Shown here: piece after piece, positions 5,988 to 63,862 of the stretch
How the letters are laid out: each line of letters starts with the position of its first letter
Numbering within the stretch: the stretch's first letter is position 1
From: Yuukianura sp. NJ FZ-2021
Taxonomy: Eukaryota
Assembly: GCA_046563655.1 (NCBI GenBank)
Contig: CM102285.1
Coordinates: 2,914,001-2,978,000, forward strand
Length of the DNA stretch: 64,000 nucleotides
Direction of reading: 5' to 3'
Position numbers and translations under genes: made by a program
Notes under the pieces: generated by a model
Databases searched by the model: none
Told to the model about the DNA's origin: nothing
What the model saw: the letters and a program-made list of their open reading frames with translations, nothing else

Positions 5988-6087
5988 NNNNNNNNNNNNN
6001 NNNNNNNNNNNNNNNNNNNNNNNNNNNNNNNNNNNNNNNNNNNNNNNNNNNNNNNNNNNNNNNNNNNNNNNNNNNNNNNNNNNNNNN
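5988..6087. other. Assembly gap (100 N)
   Basis: Run of N; a near-identical ~46-bp sequence lies on both sides. Confidence 0.99.
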
Positions 6088-37538: not shown

Positions 37539-37806
37539 ACACTCCTACCTTTATTTTAGCGTTTACTTTCTGTTAATTAGAAACTTTGTTAGGTTCAATT
37601 CCAAGTGGTTCATTAGCAAAGTTGTAAAAAATACGTGCTAAAAACCCCCGAAATATTAACAAAAACATATTTTTTTAAATAATTACTTATTTAACGTTAA
37701 ATGCACCGGCAAATAAATCAATATTTAGCCAAATCGACCCCGTAAATATTTTTTAACAGTAGTGGTATAAAGGCTAAATATGTTTGACATCCCTGTTTAA
37801 TAGAAC

Positions 37807-38301
37807 ATGTCAGCTTCAACCATTGATTGGGATAAACCATTCACGGACGATGAGTTGCGTAAATTGACGGACTTTTTCCGAACCCTTCCGACGTATACAG
37901 ACGACGGTGTGGAGCCGTACTTTTTGTCAACGGATGTCGAAAATTGCTTGCGTGGATTCAACTACTATCACGGTCCAGAGCAGTGTGAAGCATACAAAAA
38001 CTATTGGGATAAACACTACGGAGGAAAAATCCACCTCTCCAGGTACGTAGACGTTGTGAAGGGAGCCAATGCAGGTCCCTCTGCTATGTCTTCGGCGATT
38101 GGAAAAGCTTGGGACAGAGATGGCGACGGACACATCTCAGCCTCGGAATTTGCCGAGTTTCTCGATTTCATGATGGTTCATGAACCGAAACTCAAAGGAT
38201 ACGACTACGAACAGTTCATGGAGGAAGCGGATGCTAACAAAGACGGCAAAATCAGCATCGAAGAATTTGCTCAATGGATCAAGGCCAAAGTCCCAAAATA
38301 A
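37807..38301 (+). CDS. EF-hand calcium-binding protein (164 aa)
   Basis: Two canonical EF loops, DRDGDGHISASE and DANKDGKISIEE; single coding exon. Confidence 0.85.
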   Translation: MSASTIDWDKPFTDDELRKLTDFFRTLPTYTDDGVEPYFLSTDVENCLRGFNYYHGPEQCEAYKNYWDKHYGGKIHLSRYVDVVKGANAGPSAMSSAIGKAWDRDGDGHISASEFAEFLDFMMVHEPKLKGYDYEQFMEEADANKDGKISIEEFAQWIKAKVPK

Positions 38302-41300
38302 AAAAAATGATGGCATCTTCCTCGTTTGATTTCAAGAAGTACAACGTGTCGTCAACTTTAAAAGCAAAAAAAAAATATTTAATTAATTAAATTTAACAAA
38401 AACTAATTAACTTGGCAATTAAGTAAGTACTGGAAATACTGGTTTACAAATCCTTAAACGTCAATTATTAGCCAAATTAACGTTCAAGGTTAATTAAATT
38501 ACAAAACCACAGTCTCAAAACTTAATTAAAAAATTGCAAATTGTACCTTTTGTTCTTCAAACCGCAATTAAAACCCTATCTAAATTATATTGCAATCGTC
38601 TTCTTTTAATTTCAAATTTGGCATTAACTGTTACAGGATTTATGAAAAGGTTTTATGGAAGACGGATATGGTTCAGTTTTTTCACTATGACGCAAAAATC
38701 TTTGAATTTTGTTTGAGCTAAAAAGTGGAATTTGGAACTTTCCTTCAGTTGAAAGCTTTTTAAGAGTTTCCACTTTCTCTTTTGTTTTTCCAATTCCTTT
38801 ATCCAGTCAATCACGCTACTCTTCCACTCATCAGCATTCCAATGTTCACTTTGGATTTTTTAGAACAAAGGAATTTAATTTGAAATAACTTTTTTTTTAT
38901 TCAGATGAGTTTTTTCAGATGATGAAGCCAAAAGAGCTGAAAAATCTTTTGTCCCTTTCCGTTTTCCCTCGAAATGTTAAAATATTCATGTTAGTGTTGA
39001 GAGGGAATTGAAATGAAGGCGGGAACTTTCAAATCCATTTCCTCCATTTCCCAAAAAACTTGAGCCTTTTAAGGAAATTAAATTAATGCCATTTCGTTAA
39101 GTCAATTCCCTTCCACATGTCTTCAACTTTTAGTCAGTGGAGGACAACTTAAAAAGTTTCGGATAATCAATCCCATCACTCTGTTTCAAAAAAGTTAGGT
39201 TTGCATTTTAGGTTGGTTAGACTTAGCTAACATAGACGAAGTTGGGCTCCAGCAGGAGCAGTTTGTGGCAAGAAAAAGTTAGGAGAAGAATAGAGTCAAG
39301 CAAAAGGAAATTAAAAATAAATTGAAAAGAAAAGTTTAGTTGTGGTCTGCAGTTTTTTTTCGCTTTTTTTGTTGAGTTTAGAGAAAGTTGAGAAAGTAAA
39401 AGTTTCGAGAAAAACAGTTCTAATTTTGATGCTGCTTTTTAGAGACATCAACTCAAAATGAGAACTGCTGCAGAAGCGCATCATTTTGAACATTAAACGA
39501 GATTAAAAGGAGTGAAAGTTTAGTACGAGTTATCATTTTTTTAACTCGGCGCAAGCTGCTATGATTATAAACTTTTTTGTTAGTTTACGAGCAATAAGCA
39601 CAAGGTCTCGCTTCCTTCGCTCCTCTTTTTGAAGTGTTAGAGTTACAATAAAAGAGGAAGTGTGGAGGTGACAGTAGAAGTCAAAGTGTTTAATGAAGAT
39701 CTCATTACCTTCCCATTCATTATTTCACGCACTAAATTTCCTCAACACGACTTTCTCTTTTGCTTACTTTGTTAACTACTGCAGCATCACGCAAAAGAGA
39801 AAAAGTAATTTTTTCAAAGAAAAAAGTCTGTTCGACACTTTTGAGCTAGAAAAGTGACGGAAAAGTTATCAACATTTTATGGACTCATTTTTTCTCTTAT
39901 TTAAGGACGCAGTTAACCCGCACATGGTTAATTCCTTTCAAAATTAAAGTTTCTGCTAATAACGATTCTAATTACAAAGTATTAAGAGGCACATAAGCGC
40001 AGAAATGTAATAAACATTTTAATGCAACATCATAAAAAGATTCAAATAAAAAAATATTTAAAAAATTGTTTAAGATTTTTGTTACTCTTCTTTAAGTATA
40101 ACATCAGGAAAATAAAAACTTCAGAGGCTGGGAGTAAAAAATCTAGTAAATCTTTATACAAAAATGACAGCAAGAGATACCTCCGCAGTTACCGAAATTT
40201 GAAAATCAAGATTTCAGAATTCGCTGTTGATTGGCATGTACAATCAGATGATTTTCTCCAACTTCAACTAGCTACAAACCCAGGAAAAAAGCTTATTGAA
40301 AAGTTTCGATTTCTATTCAACCGAAGAGTTAGAAAAAGGCAAAGAAACATTTTCTACAAATTTTTGCATTTTTCCGCCTTTTGACAAAAGGAAAGCGCTG
40401 GTGACAGTGGCAGGAGAAAGCATTTGAAGGAGTTTCGCTTCTAAGGACACGGGAGGAAGTGAGACATGTCACTCCATGCATCCGTTACTAACCAACGACT
40501 TGCCTAACCTAACCTAAATAACCTAGTACGACCACCACTACCATCAGAAAACTCCACGAATCTTATTCCTGGAAGCGGGAAAAGTGGCAGGGTTTCCACA
40601 TTTTTGAATTCTGTCTCCATCTACACATGACACTAACATGTTCTGTTTCCTGGATTTCTCAAAAACTTTCTCTGTTAACCCCAAATCCACACCCCTTCCT
40701 CATTTCCCCAGTTTTGGAAATTTAGTTTCTCCATTTTTAGGAACTGAAATAAAAACTTGGAATTGTTCCAGAAGCTAATCAAGGGAATTTTAGTTAAAAA
40801 ATAATGAAGCATATACTTTCGTAGTTGGTTGTACATGCGAACAACTAATTTGGCTTTCTCCTATTCCACAAACAAAAGACTGATTTAAATATTGGCAAGT
40901 AGGCGCGTGATAACAACTTTTGGCGATGCTGCATGTACTCCGGTGACCGATAAGAACAAGGTTCAAAACAATTAAAAACTTCAACTTCGAAGTTAATTCT
41001 TTCGTGTCAAGTTTTGTGGGCGTTTTGTTGCACACCCACCTTTAACGCCCTCCATTTTTTTTTTAGATTGCAACTTTCTAACTAAGATGAAAATGGAAAA
41101 CAGCGATAACAACACAAGACAAAGCGAAACACACAATTTCACGACGAAAACCTAAAAAACAGTAAAAAACTTAAGTTTTACCAAAAGATCTTAACAATGG
41201 GTGTACTTTCTGAAGAAATTTTTTACCGCAACCTTATTTGTTAACTTCCGGGCAAGGCGTGCCAAGGTCACGCTAGTTTCTACAAAAAAAAAGTTTTTCA

Positions 41301-41977
41301 ACATGTTGAGAACTTGCAAAAATGTATTCATTTTCTTCCTGAAATGTACGTTCGAACTCTTACTATGATTTGTTTTACCATTTCATAACGTCATAGACTA
41401 ATTGTCACTGTAATCTTTTATAATATGTAACAGTCACAAAATTTAACAGCAATTTTTACATTTCGCTTCAAATCAAAGTAAATTCAGAACAATTCGTTAC
41501 TGGGAAGTTTTTCCGCTTGAATTTTTAACTAACTTTTAGAGACATTCGTGTGGCTTCTCAAGTATTAATTTGGATTTTGTTTCCGTTCTTCCAATAAGTT
41601 AACATTCCGCAACTAAAAGCATATTTTTTTTTGTTTATTTTGCATTCTCGAAGTACAGTCTAAAAACAACTTCTTAATTAACTTCCTACTTAAAAATTGT
41701 TATGCACTTTGTTTAGGCAGAGTATGTACGTATTTACGCATCTTATTTAACAAATTCCACGCACTTAGACGAAGTAATTTCTTCTCTGGTAACTTTCTTC
41801 CTTCGTTATAGGTTTAGAGCAAGGTTCCTGTAGCAACCATTTGTACAAATTTGTATAGTAAATTTTTAAGTATATTTTAAACAGGAGACGCAGAATATGA
41901 TTTGGGTGCGGTGTAATGAGAAATTTCGTGTATTTCAAACTCTGTCTTGGTATTACCGAGAAGAACCTTTTTCCTTG

Positions 41978-42615
41978 TCAGTTCCATCCAGGTGAATTGT
42001 CTTCTGTATTTAATTTGTTCTCTATTTTCCACTCCTTGCGCCGATTCGTGAACCAAGTTGTGATTTGGCGTTCTGTCAAGCAGAGGGCATGGGCAATTTC
42101 AATTCGTCGCCTTCTCGTAAGATAGTGATTGAAGTGAAATTCCTTCTCCAGTTCCAGAGTCTGATATTGTGTATAGGTATACGTATAACAACCATCCTTA
42201 AGCTCATTAGGAAGTGTGAGTTCCTGCAGCAGCGTCGGCGTTTCCTCGGGGATTTGATGATCCCCCAGGCAGTTGTGTTTTTTATTTTCCACTCCTTGCG
42301 TCGATTCTTGAACCAAGTTGTGACTTGGCGTTCTGTCAAGCAGAGGGCATGGGCAATGTCAATTCGTCGCCTTTTCGTGAGATAGTGATTGAAGTGAAAT
42401 TCCTTCTCCAGTTCCAGCGTCTGATATTGTGTGTAATTGGTTTGACGAGCTCGCTCAAGCTCAATGGGAAGTATGACTTCCTGCGGCGGGGTTGGCGTTT
42501 CCCCAGGGATTTCATAATTCCCCCAGGCGATTGGGGTCATTCTCAAAACCCCAGGGTTTTGGCAGTTTGGGCATACTATGCACAAGTTCTGCATATTATC
42601 GCACAAGTTCTGCAT
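41978..42615 (-). CDS. Divergent Antp-class (Hox-derived) protein with two tandem homeodomains; 1-nt frameshift between them as assembled
   Basis: Two copies of [17 protein letters not shown](K/R)RRRI(D/E)[13 protein letters not shown](K/T)NRR in a 258-bp internal duplication. The frame break is at the C5 run 42262-42266. A TATA-like/Inr-like pair lies at ~42811/42780. Confidence 0.8.
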
Positions 42616-43660
42616 ATTGTCCTTTTCAGATGTGTGCACTTCAGAAACTTTCTTTTTGAAAAAAAGTTAAAACGAAACTTTGAACTCAAATTACGAGAAA
42701 TGATTTGAAAGCAAGGCATATTCAGTCTCTTGGCTGACCCGAAGAACAGAAGAACGAAACAGAGACAGAATTCCAACTAACGAACTATAGCGATGTTCTG
42801 CTGTATTTAAAGGAAAATTTTTAACCTAAGCCTTATGGCGTGAACTTAACAGTAAATAACAGGCCCTTTAAGCGACCTTCAACTAACCCAAACAACAACA
42901 CCCTTCGAGTATTTTATAGATTTTCCTTTAAAATTTCTTCATAAGTTTTTCCCAGAAGAAGGACAAAGTACATTGTTCCGAAAGCCTGGGATCTTTTCTC
43001 AATAAAACTAGTGTTAACAACTGGTGTACATACGAAAAATGAAAACTACCCTTAAGTTGTTTTTCTCCATTTAGAGAACAAAGAGCTCAAAGCATATTTT
43101 GCAAAACAAGCCCTCCTTAAGGATTCGAATGACACTGGGGACATAATAGCTTTTATAAGTTTTCGAAAGTTTGTAAGAAAAAATTAAAGAAACGCCTACT
43201 TTCACTTTCTACTGATTTGAGGTCACAAAATTTACGCTAACCAGGGCACTCGTGACAATAGCGACGAAGGAATGGAAACCCGGATGCGGGCATCTGTAGC
43301 ATTGTTTCTTTACATTTAAGAGTTTCTTTAGTGGATTTTATTGTTATACTTTATAGCTGTAATTATAATTAGAGAATAATTATGAATTTTAGAAGCTAAA
43401 CTTAAGTTACGGGAGCACGAATGCCTTGTTCCAAAAGAATTGTTTCTACGTACTTTTGTTCCAAAAGAATTGCTCAGATCAAATTGATTCTACAAAGACA
43501 AATTGACTCAAAACGTCAATTGTACCAAAGCTTTCTAAAAAGATTGCTTTTAATGCCCTGTTTCAAATGCCGATTCCTTCAAGTCAGGTTGCTTCTACAA
43601 GAATTGTTTAAAAAAGGTACAGCTGAAAAATACACAGTTCTAAAAACAAACTTGAACGCC

Positions 43661-46600
43661 CTACAATTTTACAAAAGAAAATTCCGGCTTTTTGTGCTTG
43701 AGAGGTCGTTTCGGTTCTGGAGGCGGAGGAGGTGGCGTAGCCGTTACTGGGGCGATTTCGTCAAGATCGGCACTACCGGCTCCTAAGGTGAACTTACCAC
43801 CACTGCTTCGTGAAGCCGATTGAATGTCTACGTCAACTTTAATTCCTTGTCCTTTGAGAAATGCATATAAAGATCCTCTAGTTGCAAGGAGATCTTTTAG
43901 ACGTCCAAATTCTGTAATTTGTCCTTTTTCCAAAAAGGCAATGTACTGACATTTTTTCATCGTTATGTACGAGTTGGTTACAAGCAGGGTCGTCCGGCCT
44001 TTGACCACGCTGTACATTGTACGTAGGACCGTCTGAACATAACCAACAAACAAACGAAGCATTTAAGCAAAGGTTTATTAATTTTAATTAAGTTTAAGTC
44101 TGATTTGAAACGAGAGCTGATGAAAACATACTTTTTCTTCCTCTGCATCTAGCGTACTTGTTGGGTCATCAAAAAGCAAGATCGGAGGATCCCTATAAAC
44201 ATAAAACCAAGTTAATATTTATTTAGAATCAGAAGTATAAATGGCTGAATAAACTTACTTTATAGTGGCTTGGGCAATTGCAATGGCTTGTCGTTGTCCT
44301 GGATTTAGTTTCTTTCCCTGCTCTCCGCATTTTGTATCATATTGCTACAAAGTTATCGTTTTAGTTTAGAGTGGAAAAATTTCTACTTTAGTTAACATAA
44401 ATTTAAGTTTATATTTCCTGATACTTATAAAACTATATTACACTACTACATATACTACCTAATAAATTATACACGTTTGTATTGTATCACTTACATGTGG
44501 AAGCTCATCAGCAATAAATTTTGCATTGGCAGCAGCCGCCGCTTCTTCTACAAGGACCTGAAGATCGCCACCTTCTTCAAATCCTTGGTAGCCGTAGGTA
44601 ATGTTATCCTTAACGGAGATGTCAAACAAATTAAGGTTTTGAGGAACGTAGCCAAGGTGGTTCCGCAGATACGCAACGTTAAAGTCACACAGGTCAATGC
44701 CATCAATGAGCTGCCGTTGAAACACAATTCAATCAAACATTTACATGCAATATTTTGTTTTATATAAATTATATTTTTTGTCTTGTAATTTTTTTTATTG
44801 CAAATTCTCACCACTCTACCGCCTGTAATTTCATAAAATCTTTCGAGAATCAACAGCAGAGTTGTCTTTCCAGCTCCACTGGGTCCAACTGCAATTTTAA
44901 AAACGCGGCAAATATATTTTTCGAAACACAAAATTCTTTAAAAAAGCGAAAGTACCTATTGCGACTACAGATCCAGCGGGGATTTTGAGATTGACCCCTT
45001 GAAGTACTTGTGTTTGTGGATTCTTAGGATAACTGCACCAAACATCCTTAAACTCAATGTCTCCTTTGATGTTCACTGGTTGAAGTCCAGTGGGACTGTA
45101 GGGGTCAAGGTCAGACTTTGCATCGATTAGTCTGAAAATGAAGGCAGCAGAGATCCTGGCCTTGAAAAATTCTGGAATGAAGCTCGTTGCTTGCCCAAGA
45201 CTCAAACTCCCAAAAGTGAGAACAAAAAATACGCTGCAATAAATTCCATTTTTTATAAATAACCAAAGGTAGTAATAGTTTTCCATTAAATTGTAGCAAG
45301 GGCAAAACATATTTCTTACATGAAAACATCAGAAACTTTCTTACATGAAAACATCAGAAACTTTCTTACATGAAAACATCAGAAACTTTCTTACATGAAA
45401 ACATCAGAAACTGCAAGCACTTTGGTTCGAATTAACTCTGCGCCAATCATGAAAGTTGCTCCAAATATGAAAAACATGAGACACTCGGAGGTTGCGTAAA
45501 CCAAAGCGTACCAAGCTGCTCTTTTGTGATCTTCACTAAATAAGAAAATTAGAAGTTACGCAAATTTTCATATGCTGAGCACTTCTATACTTACAATACT
45601 TGTTTGTAGTTGGAAAATTTATCTAAATTTACTGCTATTAAATTTCTAAAGAAATGTTAAAATGTGTTGCAACTTACATCAGAGCCGGATAAATTATGTT
45701 TTCTGTTTGACGACATATTGCAAATGCTGTACATGATGTCTGAATGGCTTCAACGTTCTTAATTACAAGACTCGTGACCTATGCAATTGAATTATATTGC
45801 AAACTATTTTAGTAAAATTCCTCAGTAAAAATAATTCGGTGAATGAAAATTTTAAATGTTAAAAATACAGTGGATTCTCTAAATAAGGGAAAAAATCACG
45901 ATTGGAGGATTGGTAGTAGGCGCCTCCCCCAGTACCGTAAGATTTCTGGTAAACGGTCACTTATATGGAATTTAAAGCTAGGAACACCATTCTAATGAAA
46001 ATTTCCTGTTTCGAAGTTCAGAGTATATAATTAATATTAATATAATATTCATATATTAATGCTAATTATATGTGATATCTATATACGTATCAATATTATA
46101 TGGTATATTATATGCAAATTACGTTGTGAATGTCACCCTTATTAAACAGGTTATATAATATAACATATTATATACAGTGCGCAGTTGCGCAGTTTGTGCG
46201 CAGTTGCGCAGTTATATATATATATATATATATATATAGCATAACTATATAAATATTATATATATATTAATGTTAGTTAATTTCATTTAATTATCTAATT
46301 ACTTTTGTTTCGCACCAAAAAAAAATTAACCAAAAAAAACAATCGTAAAAAATATGCCGATAAACTGAAACATACGTTCCCTCCAAAATTAAAACTTTAC
46401 GGTACCGCGACTTCGAGTGAAAGTGAGAAAGAGGAGGAGCTCATGTCCCTTATTTAGAGAATCCACTGTACTCGGATTTTTTTTAAATGCTTTTCTTACG
46501 TTAACAAGGTGGCGTCGAATAGTGGTCATGTTTGCATGCGACTTGCGTAATACTTTCCTGAGCACGTAGAAGCATATGATCAGAACTGGTATCGTCGAAG

Positions 46601-52446: not shown

Positions 52447-54485
52447 TCAACAAATCAAGCGCCGTGTAGCAACTACGATAGCTAGTATGAGCATTGCGCC
52501 AAATCCAAGATTCTCTTTTCCCGCCATATTTCCACGTGACCCGTTGTAGGTAATCATAACAATTTGATCGTTGCTGTCGTCCGAGACAAACAAGTGACCT
52601 TGCTTGTTAAAAACTGCATTTACAGGCCGAAAACATGTTTGACACCCAATTGGATCATTTTCAAAGGCAATATCAACAACGTTGCCAGTTGGAGCGTAGT
52701 TGCTAGTTTTCGAAAATTCAATTCTGCCAATGGAGTAGCCCGCTCTGATGCTACTGTCTCTCCAGGAACCATGATATGCTACAATTGCGTCGTCTTTCAT
52801 GTCACATGGAAATGCACCATTGACCCCTGACCCCTCGCAGCTTTGTCCAGCGTAAAATTCAATTCCAAGCGGAGCAGTATGAGCGGGTAGAACAAGCACG
52901 GGAGGTATATTCTAGAAGGACATTGAAAAAAATGTTTTTAAGTTAGTTGAGAATACTGGAATAAAAAAATTAATTTGTAGTTTTTTGATGCTTTGCTTTA
53001 CATTTGCTGTAATTCTACACCAAGCATCCGTGTGAATTCCATCGTGCATGAAAGTTGGCCAGGCGAATTGAGTTCCTCTAGGATAACCTTCGAGGATGTC
53101 ACTGCTGAAGCAGTATGGGAAACCATGGTTACCACCGGGCTTACTGTTGCTGTAGTGATGAAGTTCGTCTCCGGGGTTATGGTCACCAATGTTAACACCT
53201 AAGTCAGGTCGATCCAGATCTTCTTCTGCGTTGTCAACTCCCCAGAGGTCACCGGCCTTGTCATAGGCAAGCCCCACCACGTTTCTTGTTCCATCAGCAA
53301 ACACCTAAGGGGTAAAATAAATAATTTTGAGAAAAGTATTTTTTTTCTCGAAAACTACAAATTGTTAATAGGGAGTTTGCGTTATAAGTCGTTTATAGTT
53401 TGTCTATTTTTAGAAGGCGGTTTTCAAATTTGAAAAAATTTTAGTCGCCTTATGGACCGTTAACACAGAAATTATCAATTTTGTGAAATTTTGTATACAA
53501 ACCTAATGGAGAAACAAGGTAAATAGAATATTGGAGAATATATGGAGAAAGTGTTTTTCAAAAACTGAGTTTTGCCATAAGCGTCGCAATGGAAGCGAAA
53601 AAATCAACGAAACAAACCCGCCTTCTAAAAATAGACAAACTATACAATTTACAGCGAGAAGTGACGTCACTTATTAAACTTTTCGGATTTGGAAAGTTTA
53701 TAAACATGGTTCATAAGTGCCATAAATGAGAAAAGTTTGGTAGTGACGTGACAGATTTGAAATCGACCAATCGCGGGGGGCGTAACAAAACGGCTGGCAT
53801 GGGGTTAAAAAAGGCGGGACTTGCTAAATTCTATACTTTCTATAAAATCTACAATTGATTTCAAGTGTAAACTTCCTAATAGAAAAAAAAAATTCTAAAA
53901 AATAACGATTTTGTCTCTTACTTCTCCAGTGTTAAATTCAATTGGAAAGCTAGACTTTGCAGAGATATCAAACCGCCGAATTCTTGCTCGATTTGAATTC
54001 GGATCGACATTGTCTGCTGATCCAACAGTAACGATCAGTCGTCCTTGGGCATCAAAGATCAAAGTCCGTGTCACGTGACCTCCAGTAGGCATTCCCTTAA
54101 TGACGACTTCCTCAGCAGCAGTGACAGTCTTCCTTGTTCCAGCTACATAGCGCCAGCGGTATACAGTGGATGCGCTTGAAGCATAGACATAACCTTCACG
54201 ATACGTAACTCCATGGGTCAGGTCAAGTCCTCGACCATCCACAATCATATTCTTAAAAAACGCTTGTCCTCCATCTATTTCCTTCATTGCAAAAATACAA
54301 GAAGTGCCGGATGACAGAATTAAAATGTCACCTGAATCATCCACAAATAGTCCCCGCGGCTTTTCGATTAAAGCAACCTGTTGAGCCCTGTAGCCTGACG
54401 CTGTTTGAATTTTTGCAGCACCATTTTGAAATGAAAGTACCAGAACGCAGGATACCAAAAGCGATATATTAAGTAATGCGATCAT
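52447..54485 (-). CDS. Secreted PQQ-type sugar dehydrogenase (sorbosone dehydrogenase / CAZy AA12-like beta-propeller), 3 exons
   Basis: Exons 54485-53922, 53304-53002 and 52911-52447 join in frame. Signal peptide; motifs GGHVTRTL, VTVGSADNVD, DGTRNVVG, WGVDN, NPGDEL, GFPYC, AHTAPLG, YHGSW, RPV; hydrophobic C-terminus. Confidence 0.8.
53394..53644. mobile_element. MITE (TA-flanked) in dehydrogenase intron 1
   Basis: Perfect inverted ends tatagtttgtctatttttagaaggcgg / ccgccttctaaaaatagacaaactata. Confidence 0.85.
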
Positions 54486-54619
54486 ATTGATCTCGTAATG
54501 TGGAAAATAGGCGTTGACGCCAAAATGTTTCTTCTAGGTTTCAAATTTTCACAGGGTTTTTGAAACACAACTAACAGAACACGACTATTATTTAGAAGAT
54601 GTCGTTAGGTTTTATTTAT

Positions 54620-55874: not shown

Positions 55875-57089
55875 TCAACGTAAAGTAAGTAGTAGGTCAA
55901 TTGTTGTGTTCAAAATAACACTACCGAATACTTGTAGACAAAAGTTTCTACTGCGAATGGTAAACAAGCTACCCATGCTTACTTCAATAGGGCGACAAGA
56001 TTTCCTAAAAGTGCGTTCAAATTTGCTGAGGCACGAATCCGTATATGTGTAGTATCGTGTTGAGTTTACACTAACATATACGCAGTTCTGAATAATCAAC
56101 ATTGAAACAGTGACCACTCCTGTATCCAACACAATCAACATCAAAAGTACACCAACGTTAAACTTAGCCCAAGCCTTGACTATTGTAACCGACAAAGAGA
56201 TGGTAATAAAAGTGTTTGCGTAGTAAGCAAACTGCATGCCAAAGTACAGAAATTCCGTGGTAAATATGTGGAGTATCTGGACTTTTCTGTAGCATTTTTG
56301 CAGTACTTCGCGCCAAACAGCATCTGCAAACCGCTGTTTCTCTGCTACAAATAGAAGAAATTGGGCACTGCGGTAAATTTGGACGAACAAGGGAAGTAGA
56401 CTGAAGCCGGCCCAGTACGCGTTGAATCCATCCACAACCACGAGCACAAAAGTTGTAGCTGTCTTTGCAAGAAGGTTATTCTCAATGAAGATTTTGAAAA
56501 ATGAGGTCAAAAATTCAACCAAAAAGTTGTTTGCAAATGTCGCCAAAATGCTCAAAATAACAGTTTCCAGCAGGATTGATTTGAACAGTACATTAAATGC
56601 TTTTAGGAAGAGGTTGAGCCATTCCATATTTCGTGCCATTGACTCCGAAAATAGGTTCTCTTGTAATCAAAACGTGCGTGTTACTTATAGTTAAACCTGT
56701 AAATTCAAAGTTCACTAATTAGTTAATTTTTTTTACATACTTGCTTCGTTGTCTACTTCCAAGAATTTGTTGACGTAGTTACATGCAGCATGTAAATTTG
56801 TATCCCATAAGTACTCCGTCTGCATTCCATACGCCAGAAGTGTCGCAAACGCCACATTCATTATGAATTCGAACGGTTGGCTTTTCCGGTCATACATCTG
56901 GGCAAAAAACATTAGGAGTTGCGCAATAGAAAGCAAACGGATAACCGTTTTAAGTGGAGTTATTTTTGAGGTTCCCTGAACCAAAATTTCCATTTTCCAC
57001 TTGCAATCTGTGTATGTCAATTTGTAGGGGCAAATTTTTAAAAACCTACCAATACTTAGGTATTTATCGTAGTAAACGCAGTAAAACAT
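55875..57089 (-). CDS. Gustatory-receptor-like 7TM chemoreceptor, paralog 1 (~378 aa, 2 exons)
   Basis: Exons 57089-56741 and 56659-55875; multiple TM segments; C-terminal SCRPIEVSMGSLFTI...ILNTTIDLLL resembles the GR/OR TM7 region. Confidence 0.65.
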
Positions 57090-58176
57090 TTTCACTTCAA
57101 CGTAAAAGGTAAAGACTTAAATACAAGTAACGTTTTATGAAAACTTATTTTAAAAAACTTTAGAGGCAATGGTATATAATTGCGGATCGCAGGACTCGAA
57201 AATCAAACTGGGAATCACTATAAAAATTCGTAAACCAGCATTAGGCTTTTTTAGCTTTGAAAATAGTATAATGAACTGTAAATAATGCATTTGCAATTCG
57301 CGAAGTACATTACTCAACCCAACGCTAAAAGATGTCATGATTGGCGTAGGCTTCCTCTGGATACATAATGCATCACGATATTTGACTCATCAGTGAACGC
57401 CCTATTGGTACTGTTTTGGTGCACTTAAATTTGCAATAAGCTTCCTAATGGTTTTAGGGTTTTACAACCTTCATAATTGATAACTTTGGAACACACATAA
57501 CAGTTTTCAAAAGCAATAGAAAGTTAAAAATGAAAAAGTAATATTGAACAAAAAGAGAAAAGGGATAGAATTTGGAAAACAAGAAAAGACCAATACTACT
57601 GGCAAGCTTTTTATCAATAAAGTATTACTTTAAACTTTAGAAGCAAGTCCTTGAAATATAATTTAGGTTTTAGAAATATGTCTTTGTCGTAAATAATGCA
57701 ACTTATTGGTTTTACTAGAAGAATTTTTACATACTTATTTTTTTCTTTTTACGGTACACCATACTTATAGAATGTCTCTAACCTATAATTAAACAATATT
57801 TGCAACAGCATTGGACAGTTAATGAATATATTACTTGGTGGCAGTAAATCCAACGATTTGGCTATTTAACTCCTGCCATAAATTACAAAGGTCAAAACAC
57901 AAAAGTTTTTAAAAATCATGTCACTACTTTTGGGATGTTAGACTGTCTTATCTCCTATCCAAGGTTATAGTATGTAGTTGCAGGAAACACATGGGACTTC
58001 ATTGCCTGTTTGACACACTCTAAAAGTATAAATTATTCTGCAATCCCCGTAAGCTGCGGAGTGTCGAACCGGAAAGAAATGCATTTGAAGTTAAATTCGA
58101 TCTTGTAATCGTCGGAAAAACGTAGAACGATCGCGAATAGGTGATATATAAGGTTGATTGATAAATAACATGTAAG

Positions 58177-61730: not shown

Positions 61731-62943
61731 TCAACGAAAAGTAAGTAGTATGTCAATTGTTGTGTTCAAAATAACACTACCGAATACTTGTAGACAAAAG
61801 TTTCTACTGCGAATGGTAAACAAGCTACCCATGTGAATTTCAAGTGGGCGACAAGATTTCCTAAAAGTGCGCTCAAATTGGCTGAGGCAGGGATCGGTAG
61901 AAGTGCAGTATTGCGTTGAATTTAGACTAAAATATACGCTGTGCTGAATGATCAACATTGAAAAAGTGATCACTCCTATATCCAAGACAAGTAGCATCAA
62001 AAGTACAGCGATGTTAAACTCAGCCCAAGCCTTGACTATTGTAACCGACAAAGAGATGGTAATAAAAGTGTTTGCGTAGTAAGCAAACTGCATTCCAAAC
62101 CACAAAAATTCCGAGGTAAATATGTGGAATACCTGAACTTTTCGGTAGAATTTTTCAAGTTTTTCGCGCCAAACTGCATCTCCAATCGTCTGCTTCTCTG
62201 CTACAAATAGAAGGCATTGGGCAGTGCAGTAAATTTGTACAAACAAAGGAAGTAGACTGAAGCCTGCCCAGTACGTGTTGAATTCAGCGATAACAACAAG
62301 CACAAATGATGCACCCATGTTTGCAAGAAGGCTGTTTTCCACGAACATTTTAAAAAATGAGGTCCAGAAGTCAACCAAAAAGTTGTTTGAAAATATCGCC
62401 AAAATGATCATAATGGCAACTTCCAGTAGGATTGTTTCGAACAATACATTAAAGGCTTTGAGGAACAAATGGAGCCGTTTATTATTTCGTGCCATAGACT
62501 CCGAAAATAAATCCCCTTGTGATTAAAAAAAAAACACAAAATTTAGTGAACTAAAGTTAACGTTTTCTTAATTTTTTTCTGTTTTACATACGTGCTTCTT
62601 GGTCTACTTCCAAGAATTTGTTGATGTAGTTAATGACAGCTTGTAGATCCGTATCCCACAAATACTCTGTCTGCATTCCGTACGCCACAAGTGTGGCATA
62701 CGCTACGTTCATGATGAAATGGAAAGGTTGGCTTTTTGTGTCATACATCTGACCAAAGAGCATTAGGAGTTGCACAGTATTCAGCAAACGGAATACCATT
62801 TTAAGTCGAGCTGCAATTTTTGAGGTTCGTTGGACCAAAACGTCCATTTTCCATTTGCGTTCTGCGTATGTCAGTTTGTAAGGGCAAATCTTAAAAAACC
62901 TGCCAATACGTAGGTAGTTGTCGTAGTATACATAGTAAGACAT
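61731..62943 (-). CDS. Gustatory-receptor-like 7TM chemoreceptor, paralog 2
   Basis: Exons 62943-62592 and 62515-61731; same phase-1 intron as paralog 1 and aligns to it end to end. Confidence 0.65.
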
Positions 62944-63862
62944 TTTGATTTGAAAGTGCTTTAAAGAAGCAAAAACTAAAATAAAGGTAAAGTTTTTCGA
63001 CGAATTTTTTCAGTAAAACAAAAGTTGGAAATGATTTTTGCTTGATATTCTCCTGCCTTGCAAACGACCAATAACCAGCGGTATACTTGTGGATCATACG
63101 ACTCGGTATCCAACCTTGAAATGGCTATAAGAAATTCATAAGCCAATTTCAGCAGGCTTCTTTTTTCAACCGGAAAAATATATAATGAACTGTAAATAAT
63201 TACTGTACAAAGTTTGGGACGAAATTCTCAACAGTAAAGGATCTAACTCTGTCAAATACTAAATACTTGATGATTGAAGCATGTATTTCCTTGGAAAAGA
63301 AATGTGCTTTGAATATTGTATCAAGATATCCTACTCATTAGTGAACTCCGCATTGGTTCTTCTTTTATGCTATCCTTAGATTAGGCACAATAGCTTGTAT
63401 AAGGTTCTACCACGTTCGCGTTGATGAATTAAAAACTAAGGAAGATAAGGGAAAAGTGAAATTTTGGCCCAAAGTCCAACAAAAAAGTTGCGCTGTTGCT
63501 AAATGCAAATGTTTTTAAAATCAATTACACGTTACTTGACAACGACATGTAATTAGTTTACTTTCGATACAATCAGAAAGTTAAACAAGCAGTTAAGCTA
63601 TTATATGTAAAGTACATCTTATGTTTGTTCGCTTTAAAAAAAAACACTCTAATTTATTGTAAAGATAAACATAAAAAGCAGCCACAAAAATTCTAAAAGT
63701 GCCGGAAATTTTAATACAAGACACTCTGCCTAATAATGCGGTAAACAAAAAAACTGAATTCCATTTCCTAATGAAGATAGAGAAAACACTTAAGCCCCTG
63801 CAAGCAAAAAATAAAGGCTACCGTAGGTCGCTTACGGGACAGGGTAGACGCGTACGGAGCAA

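Follow-up and report, generated by a model that had tools for sequence, protein, structure and literature searches.

A tandemly doubled Antennapedia-type homeobox with a rewritten recognition helix in Yuukianura sp.

What does a homeobox encode that resembles a Hox gene in its first two helices, reads DNA with a different third helix, stands away from any other homeobox and is present twice in a row? This question is raised by a locus on the minus strand of a stretch of DNA from Yuukianura sp. NJ FZ-2021 (NCBI GenBank assembly GCA_046563655.1, contig CM102285.1, positions 2,914,001 to 2,978,000). We call this whole stretch of 64,000 nucleotides (nt) the window and give all positions in its coordinates. 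The original prediction, made from the letters alone, had described the locus as a double homeodomain that was derived from an Antp-type box and had escaped from the Hox genes. Our analysis leads us to a somewhat different answer. The reading that we prefer, with a probability of roughly 55%, is that the locus is a gene shaped by selection, functional or recently functional, whose ordinary product would carry one homeodomain with a lysine at position 50 (K50). Note that our confidences in this reading and in its rivals overlap and need not sum to one.

The question is of interest because of Bicoid, the standard example of a Hox gene whose homeotic function was given up and whose DNA specificity was changed by Q50K together with a basic residue at position 54. 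If our reading is true, an Antp-type box has taken the same two steps independently and would be a natural replicate of the Bicoid experiment. The replicate would lie outside the Hox cluster and carry extra changes at positions 46, 47, 55 and 58, and the repeatability of the K50 path would become testable.

Two homeoboxes in two reading frames

Both boxes are clear matches to the Pfam Homeodomain family (PF00046, curated cut-off 22.9 bits). The first homeodomain (HD1, 42277-42459, minus strand) scores 65.8 bits (E = 3e-18) and the second (HD2, 42017-42196, minus strand) 64.3 bits (E = 8.9e-18). The borders follow from Pfam and translation and, for positions 1-60 of HD1, from an alignment to the Antp homeodomain. 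As had been predicted, no intron interrupts the boxes: each is a single open reading frame (ORF), with neither a stop codon nor an indel inside it. A tblastn search of the window with either box did not find a third homeobox.

The peptide strings quoted in the original prediction agree exactly with our translation. In the region of helix 3, HD1 has T46, T47, K50, K54, E55, I58 and K59 and ends in KEWKIKN, while HD2 has T46, T47, T50, K54, E55 and I58 and ends in KEWKIEN, so that T46, T47, K54, E55 and I58 are common to both. The K50 codon of HD1 is AAG and lies at 42307-42309, where it had been placed before; the T50 codon of HD2 is ACG (42047-42049, both on the minus strand). The N-terminal arm of HD1 retains R3 and R5 and has a single N inserted between T7 and Y8 (HMMER alignment to the Antp homeodomain). 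The translated arm of HD2 reads DGCYTYT, and the absence of a basic residue, which had also been noted before, is evident.

What did not withstand the analysis is the claim that the two homeodomains share one reading frame. The repeat period of 260 nt is not divisible by three, and HD2 is therefore read in the -1 frame with respect to HD1. Its open frame of 126 codons (41981-42358, stop at 41978-41980, minus strand) contains no methionine, and HD2 therefore has no AUG start of its own. Ordinary translation of the locus as assembled gives a protein of 179 residues with one K50 homeodomain (42079-42615, minus strand, ATG at 42613-42615, TGA at 42076-42078), within a stop-to-stop ORF at 42076-42666 of the same strand. 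This product consists of an N-terminal part of 52 residues, HD1 and a tail of 49 residues; the tail is TTAWG followed by 44 out-of-frame residues that come from reading through the linker and the greater part of the HD2 box. The AlphaFold2 (AF2) model of the product has helices at residues 63-75, 81-90 and 95-117, which is the pattern of a homeodomain, and W48, F49, N51 and R53 are present in both boxes. Block means of the predicted local distance difference test (pLDDT) are about 70-80 in the homeodomain and about 41-61 on both sides of it.

The frame of the tail is open for about 66 codons in each repeat unit (42336-42536 and 42079-42261, minus strand) and in both is closed by the same TGA, which lies within the codons for CLTERQ. 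Because the same alternative frame is open across both units, we regard the long out-of-frame tail as a property of the box sequence and not as a second coding layer.

Could splicing join the boxes? We enumerated all GT...AG pairs at least 40 nt apart that bring HD2 into frame with the ATG. There are 23 such candidates, all with poor donors, and every one of them removes either helix 3 of HD1 or the entire HD1. An intron that bridges the two boxes can thus be ruled out, and a two-headed protein is not obtainable by splicing. The single protein with two different reading heads that had been predicted does not follow from the locus as assembled, as the frames differ and no GT-AG intron joins both boxes intact.

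The offset itself is small. The cores of the two boxes (42016-42175 and 42276-42435) are 94% identical at a spacing of 260 nt, and the linkers (42197-42266 and 42454-42523) are 80% identical at a spacing of 257 nt. In a MAFFT alignment the units differ by one gap of 1 nt and one gap of 3 nt. The 1-nt difference (42261-42266, minus strand, GGGGGA-TCATC versus GGGGGAATTATG) puts HD2 out of frame; it sits in a run of five G within the stem of a predicted hairpin to which we return below. The 3-nt gap sits in a TATAC-like stretch of the HD2 arm. With one added base the frame of HD1 continues through ...AWG and [DN]HQIPEETP... into HD2, parallel to unit 1, which makes an originally in-frame duplication probable. 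A further tandem duplication, of 21 nt and in frame, includes the start codon (42580-42621, 95% identical, found by repeat search and translation). As this duplication, the 260-nt repeat and the TATAC-like expansion of the HD2 arm occur together, the locus seems to be prone to slippage and duplication.

An Antp-type ancestor

Next, we asked where the boxes come from. Among PDB sequences the Antp homeodomain is the best match (1HOM, 94.4 bits, E = 2.7e-26), followed by abd-A (88.1 bits), Scr (87.4), Ubx (85.5) and ftz (80.6), and other classes of homeodomain score lower still. Among the 38 PDB sequences with E <= 1e-10 none is named Bicoid, Otx, Pitx, Gsc or Crx, and the top ones are all Hox proteins, which argues against membership in a known K50 family outside Hox. 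Over 53 positions HD1 has 41 identities to the majority Antp-type box, 39 to the abd-A type, 37-38 to Dfd-like boxes and 29-32 to Hox2/Hox3-like boxes; the class labels of unnamed database boxes in these counts are those that we take them to have. The ER that precedes the arm, Y11 and W56 are as in Antp, not as in abd-A or Ubx, and H24 is the sole position that agrees with abd-A. The nearest class is thus the central one, Antp/Hox6-8, and the derivation from an Antp-type box stands as it had been predicted.

The similarity has a sharp beginning. ERKRGRQ is the first stretch of many partial Antp gene models in the database, and it is also where the similarity of the locus to six Antp-type proteins sets in. 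Upstream of ER the tblastn alignments to these six proteins are gapped and meaningless, with no recognisable N-terminal Hox sequence. The hexapeptide, whose absence had been remarked on before as a missing YPWM, is not found as [YFIL][PKQ]WM in any of the six frames of 40000-46000. Since the similarity opens at ER and what lies upstream aligns meaninglessly and without a hexapeptide, we infer that only the homeobox-exon part was copied. A retrocopy of a whole Antp mRNA can be ruled out, as there is no similarity upstream of the homeobox. We also considered capture by a transposon or a virus and rejected it: there are no inverted repeats, and 39000-45000 has no flanking direct repeats beyond those internal to the locus.

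Whatever its origin, the locus is not a canonical Hox gene. It lacks three of the four marks of one, namely the hexapeptide, the recognition helix with I47, Q50 and M54, and the position in the cluster. The window, which is the 64 kb visible to us, is dense in genes and has no further homeobox. The neighbours are an ABCB-type transporter gene, whose last exon ends about 1 kb upstream of the locus on the same strand, and genes with TrAA12-like, NF-YB, EF-hand and leucine-rich repeat (LRR) domains or with no known domain; none of them is a Hox gene. This setting is unlike that of a Hox cluster and agrees with the earlier description of the locus as a Hox escapee.

How does the locus compare with known systems? 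Like Antp/Hox6-8 (1HOM, 9ANT, 1AHD), which is its best match, it has ER, Y11, W56, W48/F49/N51/R52/R53 and the predicted three-helix fold. Unlike them, it has replaced positions 46, 47, 50, 54, 55 and 58, has an insertion in the HD1 arm, a non-basic HD2 arm and no YPWM, lies outside a Hox cluster within the 64 kb visible, and carries its box doubled in tandem. The K50 of PRD-like homeodomains is found in HD1 only, and overall similarity to the PRD class is absent. DUX proteins are in-frame double homeodomains of the PRD class. They share with the locus two tandem homeodomains that arose by internal duplication and differ in recognition residues, but the boxes of the locus are Hox derived and lie in different frames.

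Bicoid, which has I47, is defined by descent from Hox3/zen together with K50 and R54. The locus differs in having K54 instead of R54, in T47 and E55, in its place outside the cluster and in its parent, which would be of Antp type and not of Hox3 type (41 versus about 30 of 53 identities, by class labels that we presume). On the other hand, the Bicoid of cyclorrhaphan flies is likewise described, in the parts of the two sources consulted, as a Hox-derived duplicate that gained K50 and a basic residue 54 (PMC6177261, PMC10914929). As far as the consulted parts of the first of these go, Q50K alone gave a reconstructed Hox3-type homeodomain a preference for TAATCC-like instead of TAATTA-like sites in vitro, and M54R added activation of targets in vivo only together with Q50K; R54 was once proposed to serve the repression of caudal, but the double mutant did not show this repression (PMC6177261).

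Duplicates of this kind would be unusual among insects. According to the consulted portion of a study that covered 243 insect genomes, canonical Hox genes are very rarely duplicated, the cases being putative single-species ones of Dfd and pb, and that portion makes no mention of an Antp duplicate (PMC10914929). Only zen and ftz are described there as duplicating often, and Lepidoptera have arrays of Shx genes (PMC10914929 and, likewise in part, PMC4207634). According to the same excerpts, the lepidopteran Shx and zen2 genes resemble the locus as lineage-specific, fast-diverging homeobox genes born from Hox genes, often in tandem arrays (PMC4207634, PMC10914929); unlike the locus, they come from zen and remain inside the Hox cluster. 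A "retrogene" of Diaphorina citri (PMC9933525) is no precedent, since it concerns exd, which is not a Hox gene. In summary, the locus is probably a lineage-specific Hox-derived gene which can be likened to the bicoid and Shx escapees but is a member of none of these groups.

We then searched for closer relatives. Among proteins of 64-207 amino acids there are 862 matches with E <= 1e-3, and all 120 of those listed carry WFQNRRMKWKK. Atlas look-alikes of the homeodomain ORF are for the most part clusters of arthropod proteins, which is a lead only. A search of 1.84 billion representatives gave 9464 matches with E <= 1e-3. It is topped by multi-homeodomain proteins (P0123-P0135) because the scores of several boxes are summed, and they lack the KEWK helix. 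We read four multi-homeodomain proteins in full, and two of them (P0132 and P0220) contain boxes with K50, but with helices 1-2 that are unrelated. A degenerate DNA pattern for WFxNRRKEWK matched no viral contig and one metagenome contig (L001, 722-751). The latter is a chance match in a bacterial-looking contig, in an ORF of 213 codons without homeobox sequence. No orthologue of the locus was detectable in the protein, metagenome and viral collections searched; this is weak evidence, because the host is an animal from a poorly sampled group.

The recognition helix: selection or decay

The changes relative to the Antp-type consensus are not spread evenly over the boxes. Helices 1-2 (positions 8-44) are identical to the consensus at 33 of 37 positions in HD1 and 35 of 37 in HD2, which leaves 4 and 2 changes, respectively. 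In positions 45-60, on the other hand, 8 of 16 positions are changed in HD1 (p = 0.0035) and 6 of 16 in HD2 (p = 0.0065). Seven changes are common to both boxes (R10Q, R24H, K46T, I47T, M54K, K55E and K58I) and hence predate the tandem duplication. Polarisation by the consensus assigns four private changes to HD1 (R28K, E33D, I45V and E59K) and one to HD2, the less altered box, at position 50, where the step from K to T is one base away from AAG. W48, F49, N51, R52, R53 and K57 are kept in both boxes. In complexes of homeodomains with DNA, positions 47, 50, 51 and 54 read the bases and positions 46, 53, 55 and 57 touch the backbone. As far as the sequence can tell, the variable part of the DNA-reading face is replaced, and the fold and the invariant contacts remain.

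The comparison of the two boxes with each other points in the same direction as our preferred reading. They differ at 10 of 159 nt, with 0.041 nonsynonymous (dN) and 0.171 synonymous (dS) substitutions per site; the resulting dN/dS of 0.24 has a wide error because it is based on 10 sites only, but it is not the value near 1 that had been named in advance as the mark of a decaying duplicate. In the linker of 22 codons 16 of 66 nt differ and dN/dS is 0.85 (Fisher's exact test against the boxes, p = 3.5e-4). The tract of high identity stops at the domain borders on both sides. Gene conversion could also hold the boxes alike; selection on both domains fits better, since the high-identity tract stops just there. 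Taken together, the pattern of substitutions suggests selection rather than plain decay.

Our preferred reading would have the following course. The locus would be a lineage-restricted offshoot of an Antennapedia-type, that is central-class, Hox homeobox, whose homeobox-exon part alone was copied into a gene-dense neighbourhood without another homeobox. Before the internal duplication, its contact face would have been rewritten (K46T, I47T, Q50K, M54K, K55E and K58I) with helices 1-2 left nearly unchanged. The unit would then have been doubled in tandem and in frame, likely with an original period of 258 or 261 nt, and later K50 would have become T50 in HD2 and the arm of HD2 would have been scrambled by the TATAC-type expansion. 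HD2 would have been part of the protein for most of this history and would now be either severed by the recent loss of 1 nt or still accessible through a -1 shift. The product would be a sequence-specific DNA binder in which K50 moves the preference away from TAAT[TG][AG] and closer to TAATCC-like sites; the new DNA (or RNA) specificity of the original prediction is something that we infer only from the known behaviour of Q50K. Lacking a hexapeptide, the product would act without Exd/Pbx, and its affinity for DNA would probably be lower, because the phosphate contacts of K46 and K55 are lost.

Several observations weigh against this reading. HD2 is frame-shifted relative to HD1 and has no ATG, and none of the 23 frame-restoring introns keeps both boxes intact. 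The microsatellite-like expansion in the HD2 arm and the near-neutral evolution of the linker are both compatible with decay, and on so loose an estimate of dN/dS the box data alone do not firmly dismiss a neutrally evolving HD2. E55 and the loss of K46 and K58 take away contacts to the DNA backbone, which may mean weaker DNA binding and not a new specificity. The KEWK helix is absent from the best 150 of the 9464 representative matches and from all 120 listed of the 862. Finally, an ATG at 42719 opens an upstream ORF of 48 codons (42576-42776, minus strand) in another frame that overlaps the main ATG; this matters only if transcription starts upstream of 42719, as it would from either of the TATA-like/TTAGT pairs given below.

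These points lead to the rival that survives best, although we think it unlikely: the locus may be a dead or dying duplicate, a relocated fragment of a Hox gene that is never or no longer expressed, with a helix 3 that changed under relaxed constraint and boxes that are alike because of recent duplication or gene conversion. The frameshift between the boxes, an HD2 without ATG and with a scrambled arm, and the 21-nt duplication at the start codon would all be expected of such a fragment. The same is true of the missing hexapeptide and N-terminal Hox sequence, of the missing orthologue in the databases searched, and of the backbone contacts stripped by K55E and the loss of K46 and K58. On the other hand, neither box has acquired a stop codon or an indel, and W48, F49, N51, R52 and R53 are all retained. 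The clustering of changes in helix 3 (6-8 of 16 versus 2-4 of 37 positions, p = 0.004-0.007) is unlike uniform decay. The contrast in dN/dS between boxes (0.24) and linker (0.85), with a conserved tract that ends at the domain borders, speaks against this rival too. Were the locus merely a decaying fragment, it would be an ordinary by-product of duplication.

The offset between the boxes and the genomic setting

The remaining rivals differ from our preferred reading in what they make of the frame offset. The first of them holds that there is one in-frame protein with two homeodomains and that the missing base is an error of the assembly or consensus, or a polymorphism of the individual that was sequenced, in 42262-42266, in the adjacent A or in 42278-42283. 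One added base indeed joins the frame of HD1 to HD2 in the way unit 1 is read, the units otherwise differ by a single 3-nt indel, HD2 looks constrained, and the gap of 100 N in the window (5988-6087) indicates a draft-type assembly. We nevertheless consider this rather improbable. Ten long ORFs of the window (6213 nt in total) contain 37 homopolymer runs of at least 5 nt and are unbroken, even though this check is biased towards ORFs that are open. Two paralogous ORFs align without a gap over 262 amino acids, which speaks for a decent base accuracy. A real indel, moreover, is what one would expect in a linker that evolves nearly neutrally (dN/dS 0.85).

The second rival takes the offset as real and bridges it by recoding. 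The codons ATA AAA AAC for I58, K59 and N60 of HD1 contain an in-phase heptamer A_AAA_AAC (42277-42283, minus strand), a candidate slippery site for a -1 shift, and HD2 lies exactly in the -1 frame. Seven nt past the heptamer an RNA hairpin is predicted (42244-42269, minus strand) with 3 base pairs, a 1x1 internal loop, 6 base pairs and a loop of 6 nt. The 36-nt segment that contains it, which was picked after the hairpin had been seen, folds at -16.3 kcal/mol (z = -3.3, none of 200 shuffles as stable), and over a context of 60 nt the effect drops to z = -1.57, where 13 of 200 shuffles match the stability. As controls we used 18 ORFs of the window, which have 13 in-phase XXXYYYZ heptamers in 2831 codons; none of these is followed by a 36-nt segment with a minimum free energy (MFE) below -7.3 kcal/mol. 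The value of -16.3 is reached by 0.14% of the control positions and by 0.10% of 5118 window-wide 36-mers. In HD2 the corresponding site reads A ATA GAG AAC; the heptamer exists only in HD1, by way of a two-base change from GAG to AAA. The hairpin counterpart of unit 1 is weaker (-10.6 kcal/mol). Besides, the run of six A at 42278-42283 would also permit the insertion of one A by slippage of the transcript, which leads into the HD2 frame as well.

If the signal worked by either route, one gene would give a single-headed K50 protein and a rarer two-headed K50+T50 protein. It would join the very small number of recoding events in nuclear genes of animals and, if true, would be a switch by which recoding sets the DNA-binding valency of a cellular transcription factor. 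What speaks for this is the combination of an in-phase heptamer, the exact -1 position of HD2, a 7-nt spacer and a hairpin of a stability that is rare in the controls of the window. The HD1-specific origin of the heptamer, the 1-nt deletion that falls into the hairpin stem, the weaker equivalent in unit 1 and an HD2 that seems constrained despite the offset add to it. The arrangement also resembles the -1 cassettes of retroviruses, other RNA viruses and PEG10-type genes, which have an in-phase X_XXY_YYZ, a spacer of 5-9 nt, a stable stem and a -1 ORF; unlike these, it lies in a cellular homeobox locus and has a simple predicted hairpin with no evident pseudoknot.

However, the signal was found while we were seeking a bridge between the frames, the 36-nt segment was chosen post hoc, the stability is modest in the wider context, and the hairpin comes in part from the repeat unit. 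The part consulted of one source puts the share of eukaryotic mRNAs with potential -1 signals at about 10% (PMC3908577), and the excerpt of another reports that the accepted cases of conserved frameshifting in nuclear genes are very few (PMC11451614). We therefore regard recoding at this locus as doubtful. At least as speculative is the more far-reaching combination of the two ideas, an Antp-derived gene that went independently along the Bicoid route and that obtains one-headed and two-headed factors from one mRNA by a -1 frameshift or by slippage on the A run.

The last rival, alternative 3' exons by which a donor such as ATA|GTATGC at 42576 is joined to an acceptor before HD1 or before HD2 to give K50 or T50 isoforms, is very improbable: exons duplicated in tandem classically give rise to mutually exclusive splicing, the donor at 42576 with an AG at 42245, 42224, 42203 or 42197 gives a frame that is open through HD2, and the neighbouring ABC gene has short introns (read from overlapping ORFs at 44551-44937 and 44900-45328), but the donors (GTGCGA, GTATGC, GTTTTG, GTCATA, GTCAAA and GTCACA) are weak, the acceptors have no clear pyrimidine tract, and a matching phase is expected by chance in one of three cases.

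Promoter-like sites and an AATAAA are found around the locus, all of them as consensus matches only and on the minus strand. TATAAA at 42913-42918 is followed 32 nt downstream by TTAGT (42882-42886), and TTTAAATA at 42804-42811 is paired with TTAGT at 42776-42780. The first AATAAA downstream of both stop codons lies at 41634-41639.

A few further observations concern the rest of the window, in which there are no Rfam matches and no tRNA genes. An ORF of 165 codons on the plus strand (37804-38298) encodes EF-hands (Pfam EF-hand_1, E = 7e-13); we were not able to find a homologue with E <= 1e-3 among the proteins of 90-289 amino acids in a collection of 5.8 billion. The ABC ORF yielded a single and uninformative match, a slime-mould protein with 28% identity. 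On the minus strand, three or more ORF pieces at 52450-54533 make up a gene that matches the TrAA12-like family (PF22807, E = 1.8e-9 and 1.3e-6). This family is known mainly from fungal oxidoreductases that depend on pyrroloquinoline quinone (PQQ); the gene looks out of place in an animal and might have been acquired horizontally long ago. Also on the minus strand are two tandem paralogous genes of two ORFs each (55878-57116 and 61734-63009), whose hydrophobic products look like seven-transmembrane (7TM) proteins and match no Pfam family. Their large ORFs, those mentioned above for their gapless alignment over 262 amino acids, are 76% identical, and the nearest Atlas clusters of the 7TM-like ORF consist of arthropod proteins, which we take as a lead only.

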